Assembly: GCA_038226395.1 (NCBI GenBank)
Contig: JBBRQM010000004.1
Span: 5,243 to 69,242 of the forward strand
DNA length: 64,000 nucleotides
Source of the DNA: Pyrinomonadales bacterium
GTDB taxonomy: Bacteria > Acidobacteriota > Blastocatellia > Pyrinomonadales > Pyrinomonadaceae
Direction of reading: 5' to 3'
In this document: positions 1 to 16,533 of the stretch, piece after piece
Numbering within the stretch: position 1 is the stretch's first letter
Layout: each line of letters begins with the position of its first letter
Program-made: the position numbers and the translations under genes
The notes under the pieces: generated by a model
What the model was told of the DNA's origin: nothing
What the model saw: only the letters and a program-made list of their open reading frames with translations
The model's database searches: none

Positions 1-2219
1 CGATCTTTACGGTTAGAAAGCGTGTGGATCGCCCGAGAAACAAGCTCTTTACCCGTACCCGACTCGCCAGTGACGAGAACGGTAACATCAGACGAGCGTA
101 TCTTGTAAACTTCCTCGACCAGAGCGGTCATCGCCGTTGACGAATGGATAAATCCCGGCATCAGGCTGCTCGATGTGTAGGGGCTCGATTCCTGTTCGGC
201 GGGCTGCGACCGGTCGCGTGCGCGGAGCGCGATGACATCCATTCCAAGCTCGACCACGCGAAGCAGCGGAGCGAGCGAGCTGTCATCGCTCAAAACGGCC
301 CCTGACTGCGGGCCGATCAGCAACACGGCGGGCGGAGCCGCTGATCCGCGCAAATTAAAAACGGCTATATTTTTTGTGCGGCAAAATGTCTTTTCATTCG
401 CCCCGGCCTGGGCCTCGTTTAGCCTGGTGACCAGCTCGTTGCTTTCCTGCGGGGAATAACCATGCGTGATGAACGGGTAAAGGCGTTTTTGATCGTTCAT
501 TTGGGCGATGACGATCTTTTTTGCGTTGCTCTCCTGCTGAAGAACGGCTACCAGCTCGCGAAAAAGCAGCTCGCGCGAGGCCGTAGCCTCAGCCAAACGG
601 ACGGTCAGGAGCTGCGAAACTATCGAATTAGAACGGTTGCGGCCCGAACTCGCCGGTGTCTTGCGGGCGTTGCTTTCGACTCGCTTGAGTTCGTGGGCCG
701 CGGTATCGACATATGACTTAATGCCGAGTTTGCCAAACATATCGGCGGCGGATGTCAGGTGTTTCATTGCCCGCGACGATTGGTCCGAACGCAGATTGGC
801 TCCGATCAGATAATTTAAGAGCGCCGTGTGATACATGTCTTCAGCCGCCTCAAAAATGGTCAGCGCCCGGCTGAAATGATGTATTGCCAACTCGGCGTCA
901 TCGTCCTCGATCGCTGCAAGGCCGCGTATCCGCTGGATATTGCCCAAAACAAAAAAATCGGCTGACGGATCGGTCTCCTCGATCCCTCTTAGCGAATTTT
1001 CGCCAGCTTCGATATCGCCCTGCTGCACTAAGCTTTCGGCGAGCACCAGACCGGCCATATTTGCATAATGTTTGTCGCCGATCTCGCCGGAAAGTTTTAT
1101 CGTTTCGCGGGCCTTGTCTATGGCTTTTTTTGTATTCCCCTCTGCCAGATAGCAACGGGCGAGATTACGCATCGACTGCACCGCATACCACTTGCGTTTT
1201 TTCTCATGAGCAATTCCTACTGCCCTTTCCAGAAGCTCCTTTGCTTCATCCAGTTCGCCTCGCAGTATCTTTAGCTCGCCGAGCGAATCAAGAATACCGG
1301 CGATATGTAGATGGTCGTGCTTGACCGCGATATCGAGCGCGCGGCGGATCATTTCCTCGGCTTTTGTCCAGTCGCCGATGAGCATCAGATTGATGCCGAG
1401 ATTGTTATAAGCGACGACGGAATTGAGGACATGCTCGGTCTGGTCAAAAAACTGGATCGATTTTTCGAGACATGCGATGCCTTCCTGCGGCCGCCTCAGG
1501 AACCAATATGCGCCCGACATATCGGTATAGAGCTTGCCGAGCATAAAGGGCGCCGAATTGCCGCCGATGATCTGGATGCCGAGCTCAAAATACTCGAGAG
1601 CCTTTTCGCTGTTGCCCTCCTGATGATAGCTGTTGGCGATCTCGCGATAGGCCTCAGCCATGCCCAGCCAATCGCCGTTTTCACGAAAATGATCGAGCGC
1701 TTTTTCGGCGTAACCGCGGCCGATCGGAAACTCGTTGAGACGCCGATACACTCGCGCAAGGGCGCTATTGACGCTGCCATAGAGAGGGCGAAGATCATTT
1801 TCTTCGGCCTTTTGCAGCGTTTCCTTGAGCAAGGTGACGGCCTTTGGTTGATCGGTCAGATTGTTGTAAGCGATGGCAAGCTGAGTCGTTATGCGTACCT
1901 GAGTTTCGAGCGAGAGCCCGGCGAGATACTCTTCGTCCTCAAACATCTCGACGGCCTCGAGAGATTCCTTAGCACGTCCGGCAGTCTCGAATGTAAATGA
2001 AAGCAGCCGCTTTAAATGGGCAAAATTATCAGGCGTATGCGAATAATCCGCGATCGTTTTTACAAGGATCTTTTCGGCCTCACCCGAGAGACCGTCTCTC
2101 AACTTTTGACCGACGCCCGAAAAGATCATGTCGATCCGCTCTGCCGAGATCGATGGCGCCGCAGGACGAGCCTTTGCCGCCCTCGACGCAGTGTCAGTGG
2201 AACTTTGCTTATTTTTCAT
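1..2219 (-). CDS. sigma-54-dependent transcriptional activator (N-terminal TPR repeats, central GAF-like region, start of AAA+ domain); 3' end runs off the window
   Basis: Absent from the ORF track because it has no stop in the window. My translation of the minus strand from the ATG (complement of 2217-2219) stays open to position 1 (MKNKQSSTD...). The last residues, VLVTGESGTGKELVSRAIH, match the Walker A of NtrC-family sigma-54 activators. About 450 aa upstream look like degenerate TPR repeats. Confidence 0.8.
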   Translation of the reverse strand, partial: MKNKQSSTDTASRAAKARPAAPSISAERIDMIFSGVGQKLRDGLSGEAEKILVKTIADYSHTPDNFAHLKRLLSFTFETAGRAKESLEAVEMFEDEEYLAGLSLETQVRITTQLAIAYNNLTDQPKAVTLLKETLQKAEENDLRPLYGSVNSALARVYRRLNEFPIGRGYAEKALDHFRENGDWLGMAEAYREIANSYHQEGNSEKALEYFELGIQIIGGNSAPFMLGKLYTDMSGAYWFLRRPQEGIACLEKSIQFFDQTEHVLNSVVAYNNLGINLMLIGDWTKAEEMIRRALDIAVKHDHLHIAGILDSLGELKILRGELDEAKELLERAVGIAHEKKRKWYAVQSMRNLARCYLAEGNTKKAIDKARETIKLSGEIGDKHYANMAGLVLAESLVQQGDIEAGENSLRGIEETDPSADFFVLGNIQRIRGLAAIEDDDAELAIHHFSRALTIFEAAEDMYHTALLNYLIGANLRSDQSSRAMKHLTSAADMFGKLGIKSYVDTAAHELKRVESNARKTPASSGRNRSNSIVSQLLTVRLAEATASRELLFRELVAVLQQESNAKKIVIAQMNDQKRLYPFITHGYSPQESNELVTRLNEAQAGANEKTFCRTKNIAVFNLRGSAAPPAVLLIGPQSGAVLSDDSSLAPLLRVVELGMDVIALRARDRSQPAEQESSPYTSSSLMPGFIHSSTAMTALVEEVYKIRSSDVTVLVTGESGTGKELVSRAIHTLSNRKD

Positions 2220-6144: not shown

Positions 6145-6456
6145 ATGCCCGAATTTCCCGACATAGACGGCGACGTAATGACCGAGAGCGAGACCAAGCT
6201 CGAAAAGCCAAAGCTCTTTAAAGTCCTACTGCACAACGATGATTTTACGACGATGGAATTTGTCGTTTTTGTCCTGCAATACGTCTTTAACCGCGATGAT
6301 GCAGAGGCGTTCACGATTATGCTAAAAGTCCACAACGAGGGCCTCGGCATCGCCGGCATCTACCCATACGAGATCGCCAATATGAAATCCGAAAAGGCAA
6401 TAAACCTCGCCAAAGCAAGCGAATATCCGCTGCTCTGCACGGTGGAGGAGGAATAA
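6145..6456 (+). CDS. clpS: ATP-dependent Clp protease adaptor ClpS
   Basis: 103 aa. KLFKVLLHNDDFTTMEFVVFVLQYVF...EAFTIMLKVHNEG is the conserved ClpS core. No clpA follows. Confidence 0.9.
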   Translation: MPEFPDIDGDVMTESETKLEKPKLFKVLLHNDDFTTMEFVVFVLQYVFNRDDAEAFTIMLKVHNEGLGIAGIYPYEIANMKSEKAINLAKASEYPLLCTVEEE

Positions 6457-6458
6457 TG

Positions 6459-6507
6459 TTGAGATTTGTATTTTAAAGTGGCATAATGTGGTGTGGCATT
6501 TTGCCAC
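6459..6507 (+). promoter_or_regulatory. candidate TA promoter/operator (TTGAGA, 17 nt, CATAAT; three GTGGCA half-sites)
   Basis: TTGAGA at 6459-6464 and CATAAT at 6482-6487. GTGGCA at 6478 and 6493, and TGCCAC at 6502, so GTGGCA-TTT-TGCCAC forms an inverted repeat at 6493-6507, just before the antitoxin start. Confidence 0.45.
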
Positions 6508-6509
6508 GT

Positions 6510-6839
6510 ATGGGTATTATGGCCATCGTAAAAGAAAGAAAAGCAAAAGAACAAGGCCGATTAAATGTCCGGCTTTCACCGGAAATTAAGGCGCGTATCA
6601 CTCGTGCCGCCAAGATCCTTGATCAAGACCTAACCGAATTTGCTGTTGCCGCATTAAACGAAAAAGCAGAAGAGATCATAGAAAAGCACGAACAGGTTGT
6701 CTTATCCCCCGAGGAATATAAGTTCTTTCTCGATGCGTTGGACGAACGGGCACAAGAGCCATCGGATTATTCTTTAAGAGCTCTTGAAAGCTATCGTCGC
6801 GGCGTTCGAAATGGGGTGAGGTATGAATTTACGGATTGA
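6510..6839 (+). CDS. DUF1778 (TacA-like, ribbon-helix-helix) antitoxin
   Basis: RLNVRLSPEIKARITRAAKILDQDLTEFAVAAL is typical of DUF1778 antitoxins. It overlaps the downstream GNAT gene by 17 nt. The start could be 6486, 6510 or 6519; 6486 lies in the operator, so a later ATG is preferred. Confidence 0.8.
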   Translation: MGIMAIVKERKAKEQGRLNVRLSPEIKARITRAAKILDQDLTEFAVAALNEKAEEIIEKHEQVVLSPEEYKFFLDALDERAQEPSDYSLRALESYRRGVRNGVRYEFTD

Positions 6840-7320
6840 GCCGCTTACCCGTGAGCATGACCGTAACGGTTTTGATTGTTCTGACGAAAGCATTAATCTG
6901 TTTTTACGTGAAAAAGCAATGCAGGACCAACGGCTCGATTTGAGCCGGACCATGGTTTTGGTTAAAACTGGAGAAAACGCCCGCCGAGTAATCGGATATC
7001 ACACCATGTTGATCTCACAGGTGCAGCAGGAAGAGATTCCAGATGATCGGCCTAAAATCACTCGCGACATACCTGTTATTATGCTTGGTCAGATCGGCAT
7101 CGATGTGAATTTTCAAGGAAAAGGTTTCGGCGAGCGACTCATGCTTGACGTACAAGAAAGAGTCTCTGAAATTTCACAGATGGTCGGCGTCCGTGCCCTA
7201 ATGCTCGCGGCAAGAACGGAGAGTCTAGCTGGCTGGTACCAAAAGCATGATTTTTTGACATATCCCGGTTCTCTTAGAATGTTTAAGAGTATTCAGACGA
7301 TTAGAAAATTTCTTGGATAA
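6823..7320 (+). CDS. GNAT acetyltransferase toxin (TacT-like)
   Basis: 165 aa. GFDCSDESINLFLREKA and the acetyl-CoA loop QGKGFGERLM are present. It is paired with, and overlaps, a DUF1778 gene. Confidence 0.8.
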   Translation: MNLRIEPLTREHDRNGFDCSDESINLFLREKAMQDQRLDLSRTMVLVKTGENARRVIGYHTMLISQVQQEEIPDDRPKITRDIPVIMLGQIGIDVNFQGKGFGERLMLDVQERVSEISQMVGVRALMLAARTESLAGWYQKHDFLTYPGSLRMFKSIQTIRKFLG

Positions 7321-7376
7321 TCAGTAAACTGTAGAAGGCTTTGCAGGGCCGAGGGTGTGATAGCATCATATTTGGT

Positions 7377-7430
7377 ATGTATTACTATTTCATAATTAGC
7401 ATTATTACCATCAGGGACTTTGCTCCGTAG
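7377..7430 (+). promoter_or_regulatory. candidate Ile-rich leader peptide ORF (MYYYFIISIITIRDFAP*)
   Basis: 17-codon ORF read directly, with 5 Ile codons (ATA ATT, ATT ATT, ATC). It lies between the TA operon and ileS and is followed by a terminator. There is no clear SD and the context is AT-rich. Confidence 0.35.
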
Positions 7431-7464
7431 AGAGCCGAGCCAAAGTAGAACTTTGATTCGAAAC

Positions 7465-7503
7465 AGTCCCAAGCCGAAAACACGAGGCTTGGGGCTTTTT
7501 CTT
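7465..7503 (+). terminator. rho-independent terminator 52 nt upstream of ileS
   Basis: AGTCCCAAGCC (7465-7475) pairs with GGCTTGGGGCT (7486-7496) with one G-U pair, a 10-nt loop, and then TTTTTCTT. Confidence 0.7.
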
Positions 7504-7554
7504 GTTAAGGAAATAAATTTTCCGGCGTGGTAATATCTAATCTTTTATACGGTA

Positions 7555-10413
7555 ATGACAGAAACTATCGATCTTAAGAAAACAGTAAACCTTCCCCGGA
7601 CGGATTTTGCTCAAAAGGCGAATCTGGGGCAGAGCGAACCGGCACGTTTGAAGAAGTGGGGCGGGATGGGGCTTTATGACCAGATCGCCGAGGCGAGGAA
7701 AGGGCGCGACAAATTTATCCTCCACGACGGCCCGCCGTATGCTAACGCTGACATCCACATCGGCACTGCTCTTAATAAAATCCTCAAGGATTTTGTCGTC
7801 AAGACCCGCTCGATGATGGGCTTTGACGCGCCGTATGTGCCCGGTTACGATTGCCACGGTCTGCCGATCGAGACCCATGTCGAGAAAAAGCTGGCTGAAA
7901 AAGGCAAAAACAAGGACGATCTGCCGGTCGCCACATTTCGCCGTATCTGTCGTGAACACGCCGCCAATGCGATGAACGGCCAGACTCGCGATTTTTCACG
8001 GCTCGGCATCCTGGGCGAATGGCGTAACCCATATCTGACGATGTCAGCGGAGTATGAATCTTCGACCGCCCGGCTTTTCGGCAAGTTTGTCGAGCGCGGG
8101 TATGTTTATAAAGGCCTACGTCCGGTCTATTGGTGCATCCACGATCAGACGGCTTTGGCCGAGGCTGAGGTCGAGTATCGACTGCACACATCGCCGTCGG
8201 TTTACGTAAAGTTCCCGCTCAGATCAGATCCGGTTTTGATCGACGCGGCGCTCGAAGGCAAGAATGTCTCGGTTGTTATCTGGACGACGACGCCCTGGAC
8301 GCTGCCCGCAAATCTCGGCATCGCCGTTAATCCCGATTTTGACTATTCGGCGGTCGAGGTCGGCGACGACGTTTATATCGTAGCGTCAGAATTGGCGGCC
8401 GCGTTTGCCGAAACATGCGGTTTTGAAAACACAAAGGAACTCGCCCGTTTCAAAGGCTCTAAGCTCGACCGCCTCGAGGCTCAACATGCATGGCTCGACC
8501 GCGTTTCGTTGATAATGAACGGCGATCATGTGACGCTTGGCGAGGCTGACGCCGAAACGGAACTTGATGTCCGGTTTGAAAATAAATCGGCCGGCAAATC
8601 AGGCACCGGCTGTGTTCACACCGCTCCCGGCCACGGCGCGGACGATTTTGCCATTGCCAAAAAATACGGGCTTGAGGTGTATGCCCCCGTCGATGCTGCG
8701 GGTAATTTTACGGCCGATGTAGAGCATTTTGCGGGCGAAAATATTTTTAAGGCAAACCCTCAGATCGTCGAGTTTTTGCGCGAAAAGGGCGCGTTGCTCC
8801 ATGTCGAGAATTACGATCACCGTTACCCGCATTGCTGGCGCTGCAAAAATCCGGTCATCTTTCGGGCTACGCCGCAGTGGTTCATCTCGATGGATGAAGC
8901 GGCGAGAGGTGAAACCGGAGGCCTTCGTGCGAAGGCTCTCAGCGAGATCGAGACAGTCAAATGGCACCCTACGTGGGGCGAGGACCGGATGCGGAATATG
9001 TTCAAAGGGCGGCCCGACTGGTGCGTTTCGCGGCAGCGTTCGTGGGGCGTGCCGATCCCGGTTTTTTATTGTCAGGCGTGTGACGAAGCGGTCGCGGATC
9101 CCGCGATTATTGACCATGTAGCCGATATCTTCGCGGCCGAGACTGCCGATGCATGGTATAACCGCCCGGAAAGCGAACTGCTCCCCCACGGCTTCACCTG
9201 TCCAAAGTGCAATGGCGGTGATTTTCGCAAAGAGACTGATATTCTCGACGTTTGGTTCGATTCGGGTTCGAGCTGCGTCGCGGTTTTGGAAACGCGGGGC
9301 GACACGCTCCGTTTCCCTGCTGACGTCTATCTCGAGGGCGGCGACCAATTTCGCGGTTGGTTCAATTCGTCTCTGATGTGCGGACTCGCGGCGCACGACA
9401 CGGCACCTTACAAACGTGTAGTAACACACGGCTGGGTGGTTGACGGCGACGGCAAACAGATGCATAAATCGGCCGGCAACGCGATCTCGCCTAACGAGAT
9501 CGTCGAGAAATCGGGAGCCGAGATCGTCCGTCTGTGGGCGGCAGCGGTAGATTACACGCAGGATATGCGGTGCTCGGACGAGATCCTTGCACGTATCGTC
9601 GATGCATATCGCAAATTCCGAAACACGCTGCGGTATGCTCTCGGCAACCTGGCTGAGTTTGATCCCGTAAGTGATTCCGTCAGTGCCAATCACATGCAGG
9701 AGATCGATTTGTGGGCGCTGTCGGGGCTTAACGAGCTTACGGAAAAGGTGCTTACGGCTTATGAAGCGTATGATTTTCAGGCCGCCTACAATGCACTTTA
9801 TAATTTCTGCACGGTGACGCTGTCGGCCCGATATTTTGACATTATCAAAGACCGGCTCTACATTTTTGCACCCAAATCGATCGAGCGTCGCTCGGCGCAG
9901 ACCGCGCTTTACAAAATCGCCGATGCGCTTTGCCGTCTGATGTCGCCGATCCTTGTTTTTACGTCTGACGAAGCGTGGGAAAACCTGCCGGGTCAAACTA
10001 TATCGTCTGTGCATCTCACCGAGTTTCCGGCGGTTACTGATGCCGATAATTCCGGCCTGATGTCGAATTGGGAACGCATATTCGCGATCCGCGACGAGGT
10101 GATGAAGGCTCTTGAAGACGCAAGAAACGAAAAACGCATCGGCTCGCCACTAGAGGCCAAAGTCATATTAACTACTGACGCCGCGACGACACGCCTTTTG
10201 CTCGATTATTACGAGCAATTGCGATACATATTTATTGTCTCGCAAATCGAGGTGCATGAAGGTAATGCACTCAGTGTCGAGATCCAAAAAGCGGACGGCG
10301 AAAAATGCGAACGGTGTTGGAATTATTCTGTGCACGTCGGGGAATTTACCGAGTATCCGACAGTTTGCGAAAGGTGCTTTTCGGCACTCGCAGAAATAAA
10401 AAAAGCATTATGA
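7555..10413 (+). CDS. ileS: isoleucine--tRNA ligase
   Basis: 952 aa. HIGH motif ([12 protein letters not shown]), KMSKS motif (KMHKSAGN) and a C-terminal zinc finger (CERCWNY...CERC). Confidence 0.97.
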
Positions 10414-10428: not shown

Positions 10429-10905
10429 ATGCTAATACCTGTTGAAAAAAAAGTGATACCGAGATATGAATCGGGGGTAAATGAAATGGGATTGGTTTAT
10501 GCGGAAATCGATTTGATCAGTGTCGAGGATACATTTTTGCATCGACGGGGTGACCTGGATGCAAATAAGATAAAACAGGTTCGTGTTAACGCGCATGTTG
10601 ACAGTGGTGCTTACAACCTTTGTATAAACGAAACAGTGCAGACGCAGCTCGATCTGCAGTTTATTGAAAAGCAAATCGTTACACTCGCAGATGAAACCTT
10701 GCTGGAGGTCGATTTTGTAGGCCCCGTCGATATTCGCTTTGAGAACCGCTCGACAACTGTTCGGGCCACCGTTTTGCCGGGTGACGCTGAAGTTTTACTC
10801 GGAGCGATCCCGATGGAAGACATGGATGTCCTGATCGATCCGAGACAGCAAAAGCTTGTGGTCAATCCGAAGCATCCGTATGTTGCAACCAAACATTTGA
10901 AATAG
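10429..10905 (+). CDS. retropepsin-like (clan AA) aspartic protease
   Basis: Catalytic-type motif HVDSGAY and LLGAIPMEDMDVLIDP, typical of small bacterial retropepsin-like proteins. Alternative start at 10486 (MGLVYAEIDL). GGTGGAG SD precedes 10429. Confidence 0.65.
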   Translation: MLIPVEKKVIPRYESGVNEMGLVYAEIDLISVEDTFLHRRGDLDANKIKQVRVNAHVDSGAYNLCINETVQTQLDLQFIEKQIVTLADETLLEVDFVGPVDIRFENRSTTVRATVLPGDAEVLLGAIPMEDMDVLIDPRQQKLVVNPKHPYVATKHLK

Positions 10906-10919
10906 CCGCACCAGATAGT

Positions 10920-11552
10920 ATGGCCGTTGATTTTCAAACATTGATGTCGTCGCCGACCGCAGCGTATTCAGAAGCCTTGCGCTTCTTTAATGGAAACGGA
11001 ATGTTAAATGATGCTTTATTGAGGTTGGTGCGTGATCTTGAACGCCACTCTATCGACTATGCCATTATAGGTGCCGTTGCTTTGAATCAGCACGGATTTC
11101 AACGGCTAACTGTCGATATTGATCTACTTCTTTCGGTAGAAGGCCTTGAACGGTTTAGAGAAAAACTTGTCGGTCTTGGTTACAGGCCGGCATTTGAGGG
11201 AGCAAGAAAAAATTTCAGGACAGCGCAGGAAAATATACCGATTGACATAATCTCGGCTGGTGAATTTCCCGGTGACGGCATGCCAAAGCATGTCGTTTTT
11301 CCCGACCCTGCTGAGACTTCAATAGTCATCGACGGTGTAAAAACGATCTCGCTCGAAAAGTTGATCGAGCTAAAGTTGGCCTCAGGCATGACGGCTGGTG
11401 ATCGTTTGAAAGATCTCGCCGATGTGCAGGAATTGATTAAGTTGAAAAGTTTGGATGAGGGTTTTGCCGGTAAATTGAATGAGTATGTTCGTCCAAAGTA
11501 TTTAGAGTTATATCGTGCGGTGGCGTCGGCAAAAGACCGTATCGAGAATTGA
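10920..11552 (+). CDS. nucleotidyltransferase-fold protein (Pol-beta-like minimal NTase), function unknown
   Basis: IIGAVALNQHGFQRLTVDIDLLL fits the G-x-x-A...h-D-h-D NTase signature. There is no recognisable partner domain. Confidence 0.5.
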   Translation: MAVDFQTLMSSPTAAYSEALRFFNGNGMLNDALLRLVRDLERHSIDYAIIGAVALNQHGFQRLTVDIDLLLSVEGLERFREKLVGLGYRPAFEGARKNFRTAQENIPIDIISAGEFPGDGMPKHVVFPDPAETSIVIDGVKTISLEKLIELKLASGMTAGDRLKDLADVQELIKLKSLDEGFAGKLNEYVRPKYLELYRAVASAKDRIEN

Positions 11553-16445: not shown

Positions 16446-16533
16446 GCCGGAGTGGCGAAATTGGTATACGCACCAGACTCAAAATCTGGCGGGCTTAACG
16501 CTCATGTCGGTTCGAGTCCGACCTCCGGTACCA
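16446..16533 (+). tRNA. tRNA-Leu (anticodon CAA), CCA encoded
   Basis: Hand-folded. Acceptor GCCGGAG/CTCCGGT, 3-bp D stem, anticodon stem CCAGA/TCTGG with loop CTCAAAA, long variable arm, T arm GTCGG-TTCGAGT-CCGAC, discriminator A, then CCA. Confidence 0.9.

Follow-up and report, generated by a model that had tools for sequence, protein, structure and literature searches.

What controls ileS, the gene for isoleucyl-tRNA synthetase, in a Pyrinomonadales bacterium of the Acidobacteriota? Synthetase genes are controlled by T-boxes in Firmicutes and Actinobacteria, by a leader peptide at pheST and by protein feedback at thrS, and our literature search returned almost nothing on ileS regulation outside the T-box phyla. 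We analysed a 64,000-nucleotide stretch of contig JBBRQM010000004.1 (the window, 64 kb in all; coordinates are positions within it, and the leader and ileS lie on its + strand). Directly upstream of ileS it carries a short open reading frame (ORF) rich in isoleucine codons, followed by an intrinsic terminator, an arrangement that the initial annotation had read as a candidate leader-peptide attenuator. Sequence features, conservation, Ile enrichment, alternative folds and the dependence of these folds on ribosome position were all computed. Conservation, folds and ribosome-position dependence support the proposed layout, and we put the probability at roughly 0.7 that this leader belongs to a family of ribosome-mediated transcription attenuators that sense Ile-tRNA(Ile) and control ileS.

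Upstream regions of ileS were gathered from a scan of species-representative genomes, a metagenome scan and 12 exact-protein look-ups of IleS homologues, giving a comparison set of the window and 177 loci. Most leaders came from the look-ups, which spanned IleS sequence clusters at 79-87% identity; the metagenome scan gave at least three useful new ones among the matches listed (L086, the incomplete copy L087, and L088) and the species-representative scan contributed one, L002. Similarity of its IleS places the source organism among Pyrinomonadaceae-like Acidobacteriota. An element of about 130 nt lies directly 5' of ileS in 13 distinct Pyrinomonadaceae-like sequences of soil Acidobacteria, namely the window and 12 relatives with a leader ORF (L002, L081, L082, L083/84, L085, L086, L088, L167/168, L169-171, L173, L174/175 and L176). 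In addition, L087 is a truncated copy and L166 a decayed one, in which the promoter motif and the Ile run are gone and the terminator has a mismatch. A covariance model seeded with 13 copies of the leader (L088 outside the seed) matched solely these ileS leaders in the 64-kb window and the 177 loci, plus the diverged L088 at 26.9 bits.

The mini-ORF opening at ATG 7377, with five Ile codons among seven consecutive codons (7392-7412), was found exactly as first described. The leader ORF is 15-19 codons long in 13/13 sequences and holds two to five Ile codons clustered within six or seven codons, in frame with a conserved ATG in 13/13. Ile accounts for 20.4% of the pooled leader residues, compared with 5.8% in two large proteins of the window (Leu reaches 5% and Val 3%), and it is the sole residue type clustered in every leader. 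Against composition-matched shuffles the cluster has p values from 1e-4 to 0.05 per leader (0.005 in the window). A density of at least five Ile in seven codons occurs at just three sites in the six frames of the 64 kb, the other two within a long ORF on the opposite strand. As a control, 250 nt upstream of 128 unrelated ileS loci were scanned for small ORFs with at least three Ile in six codons; 3/128 (about 2%) contained one, and the reverse complement also gave 3. Ile-rich small ORFs upstream of ileS occur at these distant loci at background rate only, so they are no widespread feature.

The Ile cluster comes in three diverged versions: MRRPSPII(I/S/N)..I in leaders that we call type A, ..IISIIT..FAP in type B, to which the window belongs, and AIIIISI in L088. 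Ile codons swap among ATT, ATA and ATC and change position, and the remaining peptide is free to vary; the L176 ORF carries an in-frame 6-nt gap relative to the others. Chance occurrence in AT-rich DNA had been raised as a caveat. Type A leader ORFs are not AT-rich (T 16-26%) yet retain the Ile cluster, as does L088, and we therefore reject it.

The same evidence bears on a reading in which the hairpin merely ends transcription of the toxin-antitoxin (or clpS) operon upstream and the mini-ORF arose by chance in AT-rich spacer DNA. The toxin ORF, on the same strand, does stop 145 nt before the terminator. However, the element keeps its spacing to ileS whether the gene immediately upstream is clpS (L002, L082, L083, L167, L169), the TacA/GNAT toxin-antitoxin pair (window, L081, L166, L086) or another ORF (L085, L173, L176), which ties it to ileS rather than to the operon upstream. 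It also has its own promoter motif, and its Ile-rich ORF is conserved, GC-balanced type A leaders included, over a background of about 2%. We thus dismiss the idea, first entered as a caveat, as highly improbable.

The terminator itself was correctly recognized as an 11-bp stem (7465-7475 / 7486-7496) followed by a T tract. It folds at -20.4 kcal/mol (z = -4.3 versus shuffles), and its U tract ends 50 nt, not 52 nt as first given, before the ileS ATG at 7555. All 13 leader copies (13/13) have an intrinsic terminator, with a poor U tract in L169. Pair counts cover 12 aligned and closely related leader sequences; in these the terminator is 100% paired, and its top C-G pair is exchanged for U-A. 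Three further compensatory pairs are seen in the L088 terminator. L088 also contains a 15-bp hairpin (2400-2436, GUCGGUAGAAcGGCUU / AAGCCuUCUACCGAC) that has the leader stop UAG in its 5' arm and ends one base before the terminator.

The position of this terminator relative to ileS distinguishes two architectures. In six type A relatives (L081, L082, L085, L086, L167, L173) the spacer between terminator and ileS ATG is only 9-14 nt and contains no promoter motif, so ileS must be transcribed through the terminator. Such apparently obligatory read-through is the strongest argument for action in cis on ileS. Type B loci (window, L083, L176, L174, L169, L166) have a spacer of 53-138 nt with a second extended -10 motif, located at -19 to -27 from the ileS ATG in the window, L083, L176, L174 and L166 and at -65 in L169. 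The TAATAT of the window, which the initial annotation had considered as an independent ileS promoter, forms part of this conserved motif (TGGTAATAT); the motif also occurs in L001 and L177, which have no leader, and TAATAT is very probably a real ileS promoter. Dependence on read-through, that is, the lack of a promoter after the terminator, is a mark of the class that we found in the six type A relatives and not in the window. Because of its proximal promoter, attenuation in the window can control only transcripts from the upstream promoter, and control is probably partial.

An upstream promoter is suggested by a TGnTAnnnT motif 16-26 nt before the leader ATG in 12/13 leaders (about 1.4% expected by chance per 25 nt), which is missing from the decayed L166. 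The predicted start of the leader transcript lies about 2-4 nt before the mini-ORF ATG of the window, which would make the mRNA nearly leaderless; its 5' untranslated region would span roughly 0-11 nt and have no Shine-Dalgarno (SD) sequence. The absence of a clear SD had been listed as a caveat. The observation is correct, but it poses no obstacle: an SD core precedes only 8/53 long ORFs of this organism and none is found at ileS, so its absence from the leader ORF is normal, and 12/13 leaders have the extended -10.

We then have to account for read-through. GGGACT (7414-7419), inside the mini-ORF, had been proposed to pair with AGTCCC (7465-7470) at the base of the terminator stem, excluding the terminator. 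This pairing proved to be the conserved closing helix of an antiterminator. In truncated transcripts (RNA ending just 5' of the terminator 3' arm) the minimum-energy fold of 10/12 leaders is a junction made of the closing helix GGGAC(U):(A)GUCCC, a hairpin P1 and a variable hairpin P2. The window domain (7414-7470) folds at -19.1 kcal/mol (z = -3.25). P1, which encloses the leader stop codon in all leaders, is 90% paired across the 12 sequences, one of its pairs occurring as A-U in five of them and as G-C in five. Pairing in the closing helix reaches 87.5%, with most of its columns invariant. The frame of GGGAC is A-GGG-AC in the window, L176 and L169 but GGG-ACN in type A; its retention across different reading frames suggests that the RNA, rather than the codons, is constrained. 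The pair beside it is U-A, C-G or U-G among leaders, and the helix is lengthened differently in L081 (GGACUCG:CGAGUCC) and L086 (GGGACgCCGUU:AACGGGUCCC). The alignment of relatives that had been suggested as a check thus showed a conserved Ile run and compensatory changes in the terminator, in P1 and beside GGGAC, although covariation lends modest support, given a small sample (12-13) of closely related sequences.

P2 is less constant. Equivalent hairpins of different sequence are present in L176, L002, L082 and L085, and conservation is poor in the other leaders. Two alternative partners had been suggested for CAAAGT (7441-7446): pairing with 7450-7455 stands, as P2, whereas pairing with ACTTTG at 7417-7422 occurs only in the full-length minimum-energy fold of the window and is not conserved. 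Sequestration of GUCCC, scored against dinucleotide shuffles of the upstream sequence, amounts to 7.0 kcal/mol (z 3.2) in the window. Elsewhere z is 4.0 in L176, 3.5 in L086, 2.7 in L081 and 2.4 in L002, about 1 in L082, L085, L173 and L174, and 0.5 in L167; L083 and L169 show none.

Coupling to translation was modelled by masking 28 nt around each possible A-site codon in truncated transcripts and reading out the closing-helix probability. With the A site at codons up to and including the first Ile run, this probability is 0.8-1.0 in nine leaders (only about 0.6-0.75 at the Ile run of L174). The permissive A-site codons are 6-9 in the window (6-10 with a shorter footprint) and 7-9 in type A. 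From the codon after the first Ile run through the codon preceding the stop, the probability is 0. At the stop codon it is 0 in type B and about 0.5-1.0 in type A, where the helix returns because GGGAC lies outside the masked footprint. The pattern implies that the Ile run marks the last positions at which a stalled ribosome leaves GGGAC exposed. Masked folding had been proposed as a test, and in its outcome the closing helix survives solely with the ribosome on the first Ile codons.

The initial portion of type A leaders deserves a separate description. In L081, L082, L085, L086, L167, L173 and L002 the first 22 nt of the ORF are invariant (AUGCGGAGGCCAUCGCCCAUUA, one change in L086), synonymous positions included; this segment contains GGAGG, and the rest of the type A leader diverges. 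Within it, GCCAUCGC (codons 3-6) is complementary to GCGAUGGC just past the stop codon in L082, L167 and L085 (one mismatch). We do not claim a classical region 1:2 pairing, since in L086, L173, L081 and L002 the GCGAUGGC partner has decayed and no compensating change is seen. Possible causes for the conservation of the 22 nt are an effect of RPSP in the nascent peptide, translation initiation at a leaderless mRNA, or RNA pairing.

These features suggest the following scheme, in which we infer where transcription starts and ends, that the ORF is translated and that the system responds to isoleucine. An extended -10 promoter (7359-7367) would start a transcript whose first feature is the 17-codon ORF (7377-7430) with its five Ile codons. 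GGGACU (7414-7419), just 3' of the Ile run, would pair with AGUCCC (7465-7470), the base of the terminator 5' arm, and this helix would close a three-way junction with P1 and P2, the putative antiterminator. When charged tRNA(Ile) is scarce, a ribosome would stall on the first Ile codons with its leading edge short of GGGACU; the junction could then form and polymerase would continue into ileS. When charged tRNA(Ile) is plentiful, the ribosome would pass over GGGACU and P1 to the stop codon and block the closing helix, the terminator would fold, and transcription would end at 7497-7504. As there is no conserved region 1:2 pairing, the moving ribosome itself, rather than a competing hairpin, would prevent antitermination under these conditions; in all other respects the geometry matches classical attenuation. 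In the window the proximal promoter (7528-7536) probably gives basal ileS transcription, to which the attenuator would add an inducible part.

Several points weigh against this scheme. Covariation is thin and most paired columns never vary. The predicted antiterminator is weak or absent in L083 (GGGAAC) and L169, and no antiterminator pairing was recognizable in folds of L088. At equilibrium the full-length leader is always dominated by the terminator, whatever the mask (P at least 0.6, usually above 0.9). The model hence requires competition that is kinetic and takes place during transcription; attenuators act kinetically, and terminator dominance at equilibrium is therefore expected. Without translation, the free RNA is predicted to adopt the antiterminator by default, unlike in the classical trp scheme. 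A ribosome stalled on the last Ile codon of each leader would, according to the masks, cover GGGAC. A conserved promoter 3' of the terminator frees ileS from dependence on read-through in the type B loci, the window included, and the window element would be dispensable in principle; its loss from L001 and L177, which manage without it, and its decay in L166 agree with this.

The fold of the free RNA leads to the question of whether a ribosome is needed at all. Junction and terminator might respond to IleRS (like E. coli thrS), to uncharged tRNA or to a small molecule, with the Ile-rich ORF a by-product of an AUUAUUA motif. A nucleotide motif AUUAU(U/A)A indeed recurs in most leaders, the invariant type A segment with its synonymous sites points to a constraint at the RNA level, and the antiterminator is predicted to form unaided. 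Such translation-independent control is nevertheless improbable in our judgement. The Ile codons stay in frame with the conserved ATG in 13/13 leaders even as ATT, ATA and ATC interchange, the ORF is held at 15-19 codons with its stop always within P1, and the Ile run coincides exactly with the final ribosome positions at which GGGAC stays free. Among the Rfam 15 families, amino-acid leaders included, none reached its gathering threshold on the leader, and no T-box was matched even at E values up to 10 in the window leader and one type A leader. NsiR1 scored 29 bits against a threshold of 39 on the window leader, with little beyond the terminator hairpin, and 14.6 bits in L085; it was rejected.

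The proximal promoter raises a different objection, specific to type B: the window element may no longer work on ileS, which would be driven from 7528-7536, and the unit would be a vestigial attenuator, an independent small transcript such as a small RNA or a micro-mRNA, or a terminator that insulates the ileS promoter against transcription from upstream. All type B loci have the proximal extended -10, as do the leader-less L001 and L177, the antiterminator is weak in the type B leaders L083 and L169, and L166 demonstrates that this architecture can decay. The unit also owns a promoter and a terminator, like a small RNA gene, but neither a second copy nor a complementary, target-like match was found elsewhere in the 64-kb window. 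The five diverged type B leaders moreover still have their ATG and in-frame Ile run, with the stop codon within P1, and keep both GGGAC and the terminator; the antiterminator signal of the window is among the strongest, and the homologous type A elements need read-through for ileS expression. We consider this reading of the window unlikely, if less so than control without translation, and favour ribosome-mediated attenuation.

How does the proposed attenuator compare with known systems? Leader-peptide attenuation of a synthetase operon is established for E. coli pheM-pheST, where scarcity of the charged tRNA leads to more synthetase. Both systems have a short ORF rich in cognate codons followed by alternative antiterminator and terminator structures upstream of the synthetase gene. 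They differ in that the leader described here concerns Ile and ileS, shows no sequence similarity and would lie on a nearly leaderless, SD-less mRNA; its antiterminator is a three-way junction closed by a 6-bp helix instead of a single hairpin, a conserved region 1:2 pairing is lacking, and in the window a second promoter follows the terminator. With ilvL and ivbL (ilvGMEDA and ilvBN of Enterobacteria) it would share the reading of leader-peptide Ile codons by the ribosome as attenuation signal. Those leaders mix Ile, Leu and Val and precede biosynthetic operons, whereas here Ile alone is enriched, the gene encodes a synthetase, and the window leader has no match to any Rfam leader family.

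PMC1262725 cites the pheST operon as the proteobacterial example. From comparative genomics, classical attenuators have been predicted for leuS and trpS in Streptomyces (PMC1262725), and in Bacillus the hisS paralogues are predicted to carry His leaders (PMC2965389). These are likewise synthetase attenuators outside Proteobacteria; phyla, amino acids and sequences differ and none concerns ileS. In Firmicutes ileS is under T-boxes, and in Actinobacteria under translational T-boxes (PMC1262725). Gene and signal, charging of tRNA(Ile), are the same there, but a T-box binds uncharged tRNA directly, whereas a translating ribosome would be the sensor here. A small coding sequence (CDS) upstream of ileS, CCNA_03934, was detected by ribosome profiling in Caulobacter crescentus, named 'ileS leader CDS' and used as a control; the publication gives the name only, with no mechanism or Ile-codon content (PMC4117421). 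According to a 2010 survey, hardly any of the attenuators predicted in Acidobacteria had been given a function (PMC2965389).

The initial annotation knew of no leader-peptide attenuator for ileS or for Acidobacteria. Our full-text literature searches found no Ile-codon attenuator of ileS, and none in Acidobacteria. The mechanism is textbook; what is new is the gene and the phylum, together with some details: a leader mRNA that is nearly leaderless and has no SD, an antiterminator of the junction type, and an optional promoter after the terminator. It is fairly likely that this is a previously undescribed family of Ile-sensing leader-peptide attenuators with a nearly leaderless, SD-less mRNA and a three-way-junction antiterminator, and that ileS expression in part of the Pyrinomonadaceae depends mainly or solely on it. 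Positions of the features and the leader peptides are collected in Table 1.

Table 1. Features of the ileS leader region in the window, and leader peptides of the window and its relatives.
Feature	Position	Strand	Details
clpS	6145-6456	+	upstream of leader
TacA-like antitoxin	6486-6839	+	upstream of leader
GNAT toxin	6823-7320	+	related to solved TacT, AtaT and KacT structures
Possible -35 hexamer TTTGCA of leader promoter (weak, putative)	7340..7345	+	16 nt upstream of TAGCAT; GCTTTG common to L083
Predicted extended -10 TGATAGCAT of leader transcript	7359..7367	+	TGnTAnnnT motif
Leader ORF MYYYFIISIITIRDFAP, 17 codons	7377..7430	+	TAG stop 7428-7430; read from sequence; orthologues in relatives
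Ile codon run ATA ATT agc ATT ATT acc ATC	7392..7412	+	Ile codons at 7392, 7395, 7401, 7404, 7410
GGGACU, 5' strand of antiterminator closing helix	7414..7419	+	pairs with 7465-7470 in truncated-transcript minimum-energy fold
Hairpin P1 (GCUC / GAGC)	7422..7435	+	leader stop UAG in loop; truncated-transcript folds
Hairpin P2 (CGAG.CAAAGU / ACUUUG.UUCG)	7436..7460	+	second junction branch; truncated-transcript folds
AGUCCC, 3' strand of antiterminator	7465-7470	+	first 6 nt of terminator 5' arm; complementary to GGGACU
Terminator hairpin	7465..7496	+	stem AGTCCCAAGCC (7465-7475) / GGCTTGGGGCT (7486-7496), 11 pairs, one G-U
U tract TTTTTCTT	7497..7504	+	conserved across leaders
Proximal extended -10 TGGTAATAT of ileS	7528..7536	+	includes TAATAT 7531-7536; 3' of terminator; conserved
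ileS, isoleucyl-tRNA synthetase, 952 aa	7555..10413	+	Pfam tRNA-synt_1, Anticodon_1, zf-FPG_IleRS; N-terminus aligns with relatives
Leader peptide, type B, window			MYYYFIISIITIRDFAP
Leader peptide, type B, L083			MCSDFKISIITNGNFAP
Leader peptide, type B, L176			MRGRFIIITYRDCAP
Leader peptide, type B, L169			MGSQTTICIIAVRKFAP
Leader peptide, type B, L174			MKRSTQIISISLTGLCST
Leader peptide, type A, L082			MRRPSPIIIEIKGTVLYAS
Leader peptide, type A, L085			MRRPSPIIIDIEGTVLNIS
Leader peptide, type A, L086			MQRPSPIITNIFGTPFDVS
Leader peptide, type A, L167			MRRPSPIINDIVGTTFNLS
Leader peptide, type A, L173			MRRPSPIISNTIGTALGLT
Leader peptide, type A, L081			MRRPSPIISSIEGLVLGVG
Leader peptide, type A, L002			MRRPSPISTISKGTLPSES
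Leader peptide, diverged, L088			MMMLSELAIIIISIKCR

Among relatives, the element is absent from L001, L177, L003-5, L089-91 and L097, and L172 has an unrelated ileS leader in its place. Its distribution is thus limited to a subclade, with several losses. Leader types A and B both occur among IleS proteins that are 85-87% identical (cluster P0001-P0012: L081, L082 and L085 versus the window and L083); leader type therefore does not track the IleS tree, which suggests exchange of upstream regions by recombination, or an old polymorphism. The leader of L172 (1838-2000; IleS 82% identical) consists of a promoter-like site ATGTTAAAAT, a long imperfect hairpin GGCGGAAC...GUUUCCGCC and then UUUGUUAU. 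It has no Ile-rich ORF and contains UGGUGGUA. A T-box was considered for it on account of UGGUGGUA and the terminator, and was discarded as neither a T-box nor any other Rfam family matched. In several leader-less relatives (L003 at ~2860-2940, L004 at ~2850-2922, L005 at ~2830-2925, L097 and L091) long, near-perfect inverted repeats follow the terminator of the upstream gene and precede the ileS promoter. Their sequence differs per genome (GTAAATCGTCAATCGTGAATCGTAAATAG... in L004), and they may be REP- or MITE-like elements, or insulators.

The flanks of the locus vary as well. A TacA-like antitoxin and GNAT toxin pair lies between clpS and the ileS leader in four loci (window 6486-7320, L081 2003-2849, L166 890-1691, and L086 upstream of 2145), and other relatives have different ORFs or nothing at this position, which makes it look like an insertion hot spot. 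The window toxin matches the TacT, AtaT and KacT structures at E = 1e-15 to 1e-23. Toxins of the TacT family acetylate aminoacyl-tRNAs. This activity would provoke the very stalling that the leader is proposed to sense, although a functional link between toxin and leader is pure speculation and very unlikely. The best match of a promoter scan within 6459-6520 of the window, TTGAGA-17-CATAAT with an upstream TG, ends at 6487, on the annotated antitoxin ATG (6486); the antitoxin may thus start at a later ATG (about 6510-6522) or have a leaderless mRNA. Between ileS and lspA (10429-11552 in the window, and also in L166) we find an aspartyl-protease-like ORF and an AbiEii-like nucleotidyltransferase ORF. 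In L172 and L176 the AbiEii-like ORF alone was recorded, and further relatives have a 144-aa ORF and a lumazine-binding-domain ORF, so the downstream flank of ileS is variable too. The sole Rfam family above threshold in the 64-kb window is tRNA-Leu with anticodon CAA (16446-16533).

If the proposed mechanism is true, the leader would be among the first predicted attenuators of the Acidobacteriota with an assignable function, and would show that a ribosome sensor can take the place at ileS that a T-box holds in other phyla. It would illustrate the convergent replacement of one sensing system by another at a single gene, and provide the Acidobacteriota with a concrete, conserved and testable ileS regulator, a new element and not a new principle. 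The covariance model could be used to annotate such leaders in metagenomes, and the element could act as a reporter of Ile-tRNA charging. Within the family, the natural variants (obligatory read-through, backup by a second promoter, one decaying copy and element-free loci) could reveal how attenuators are gained and lost.

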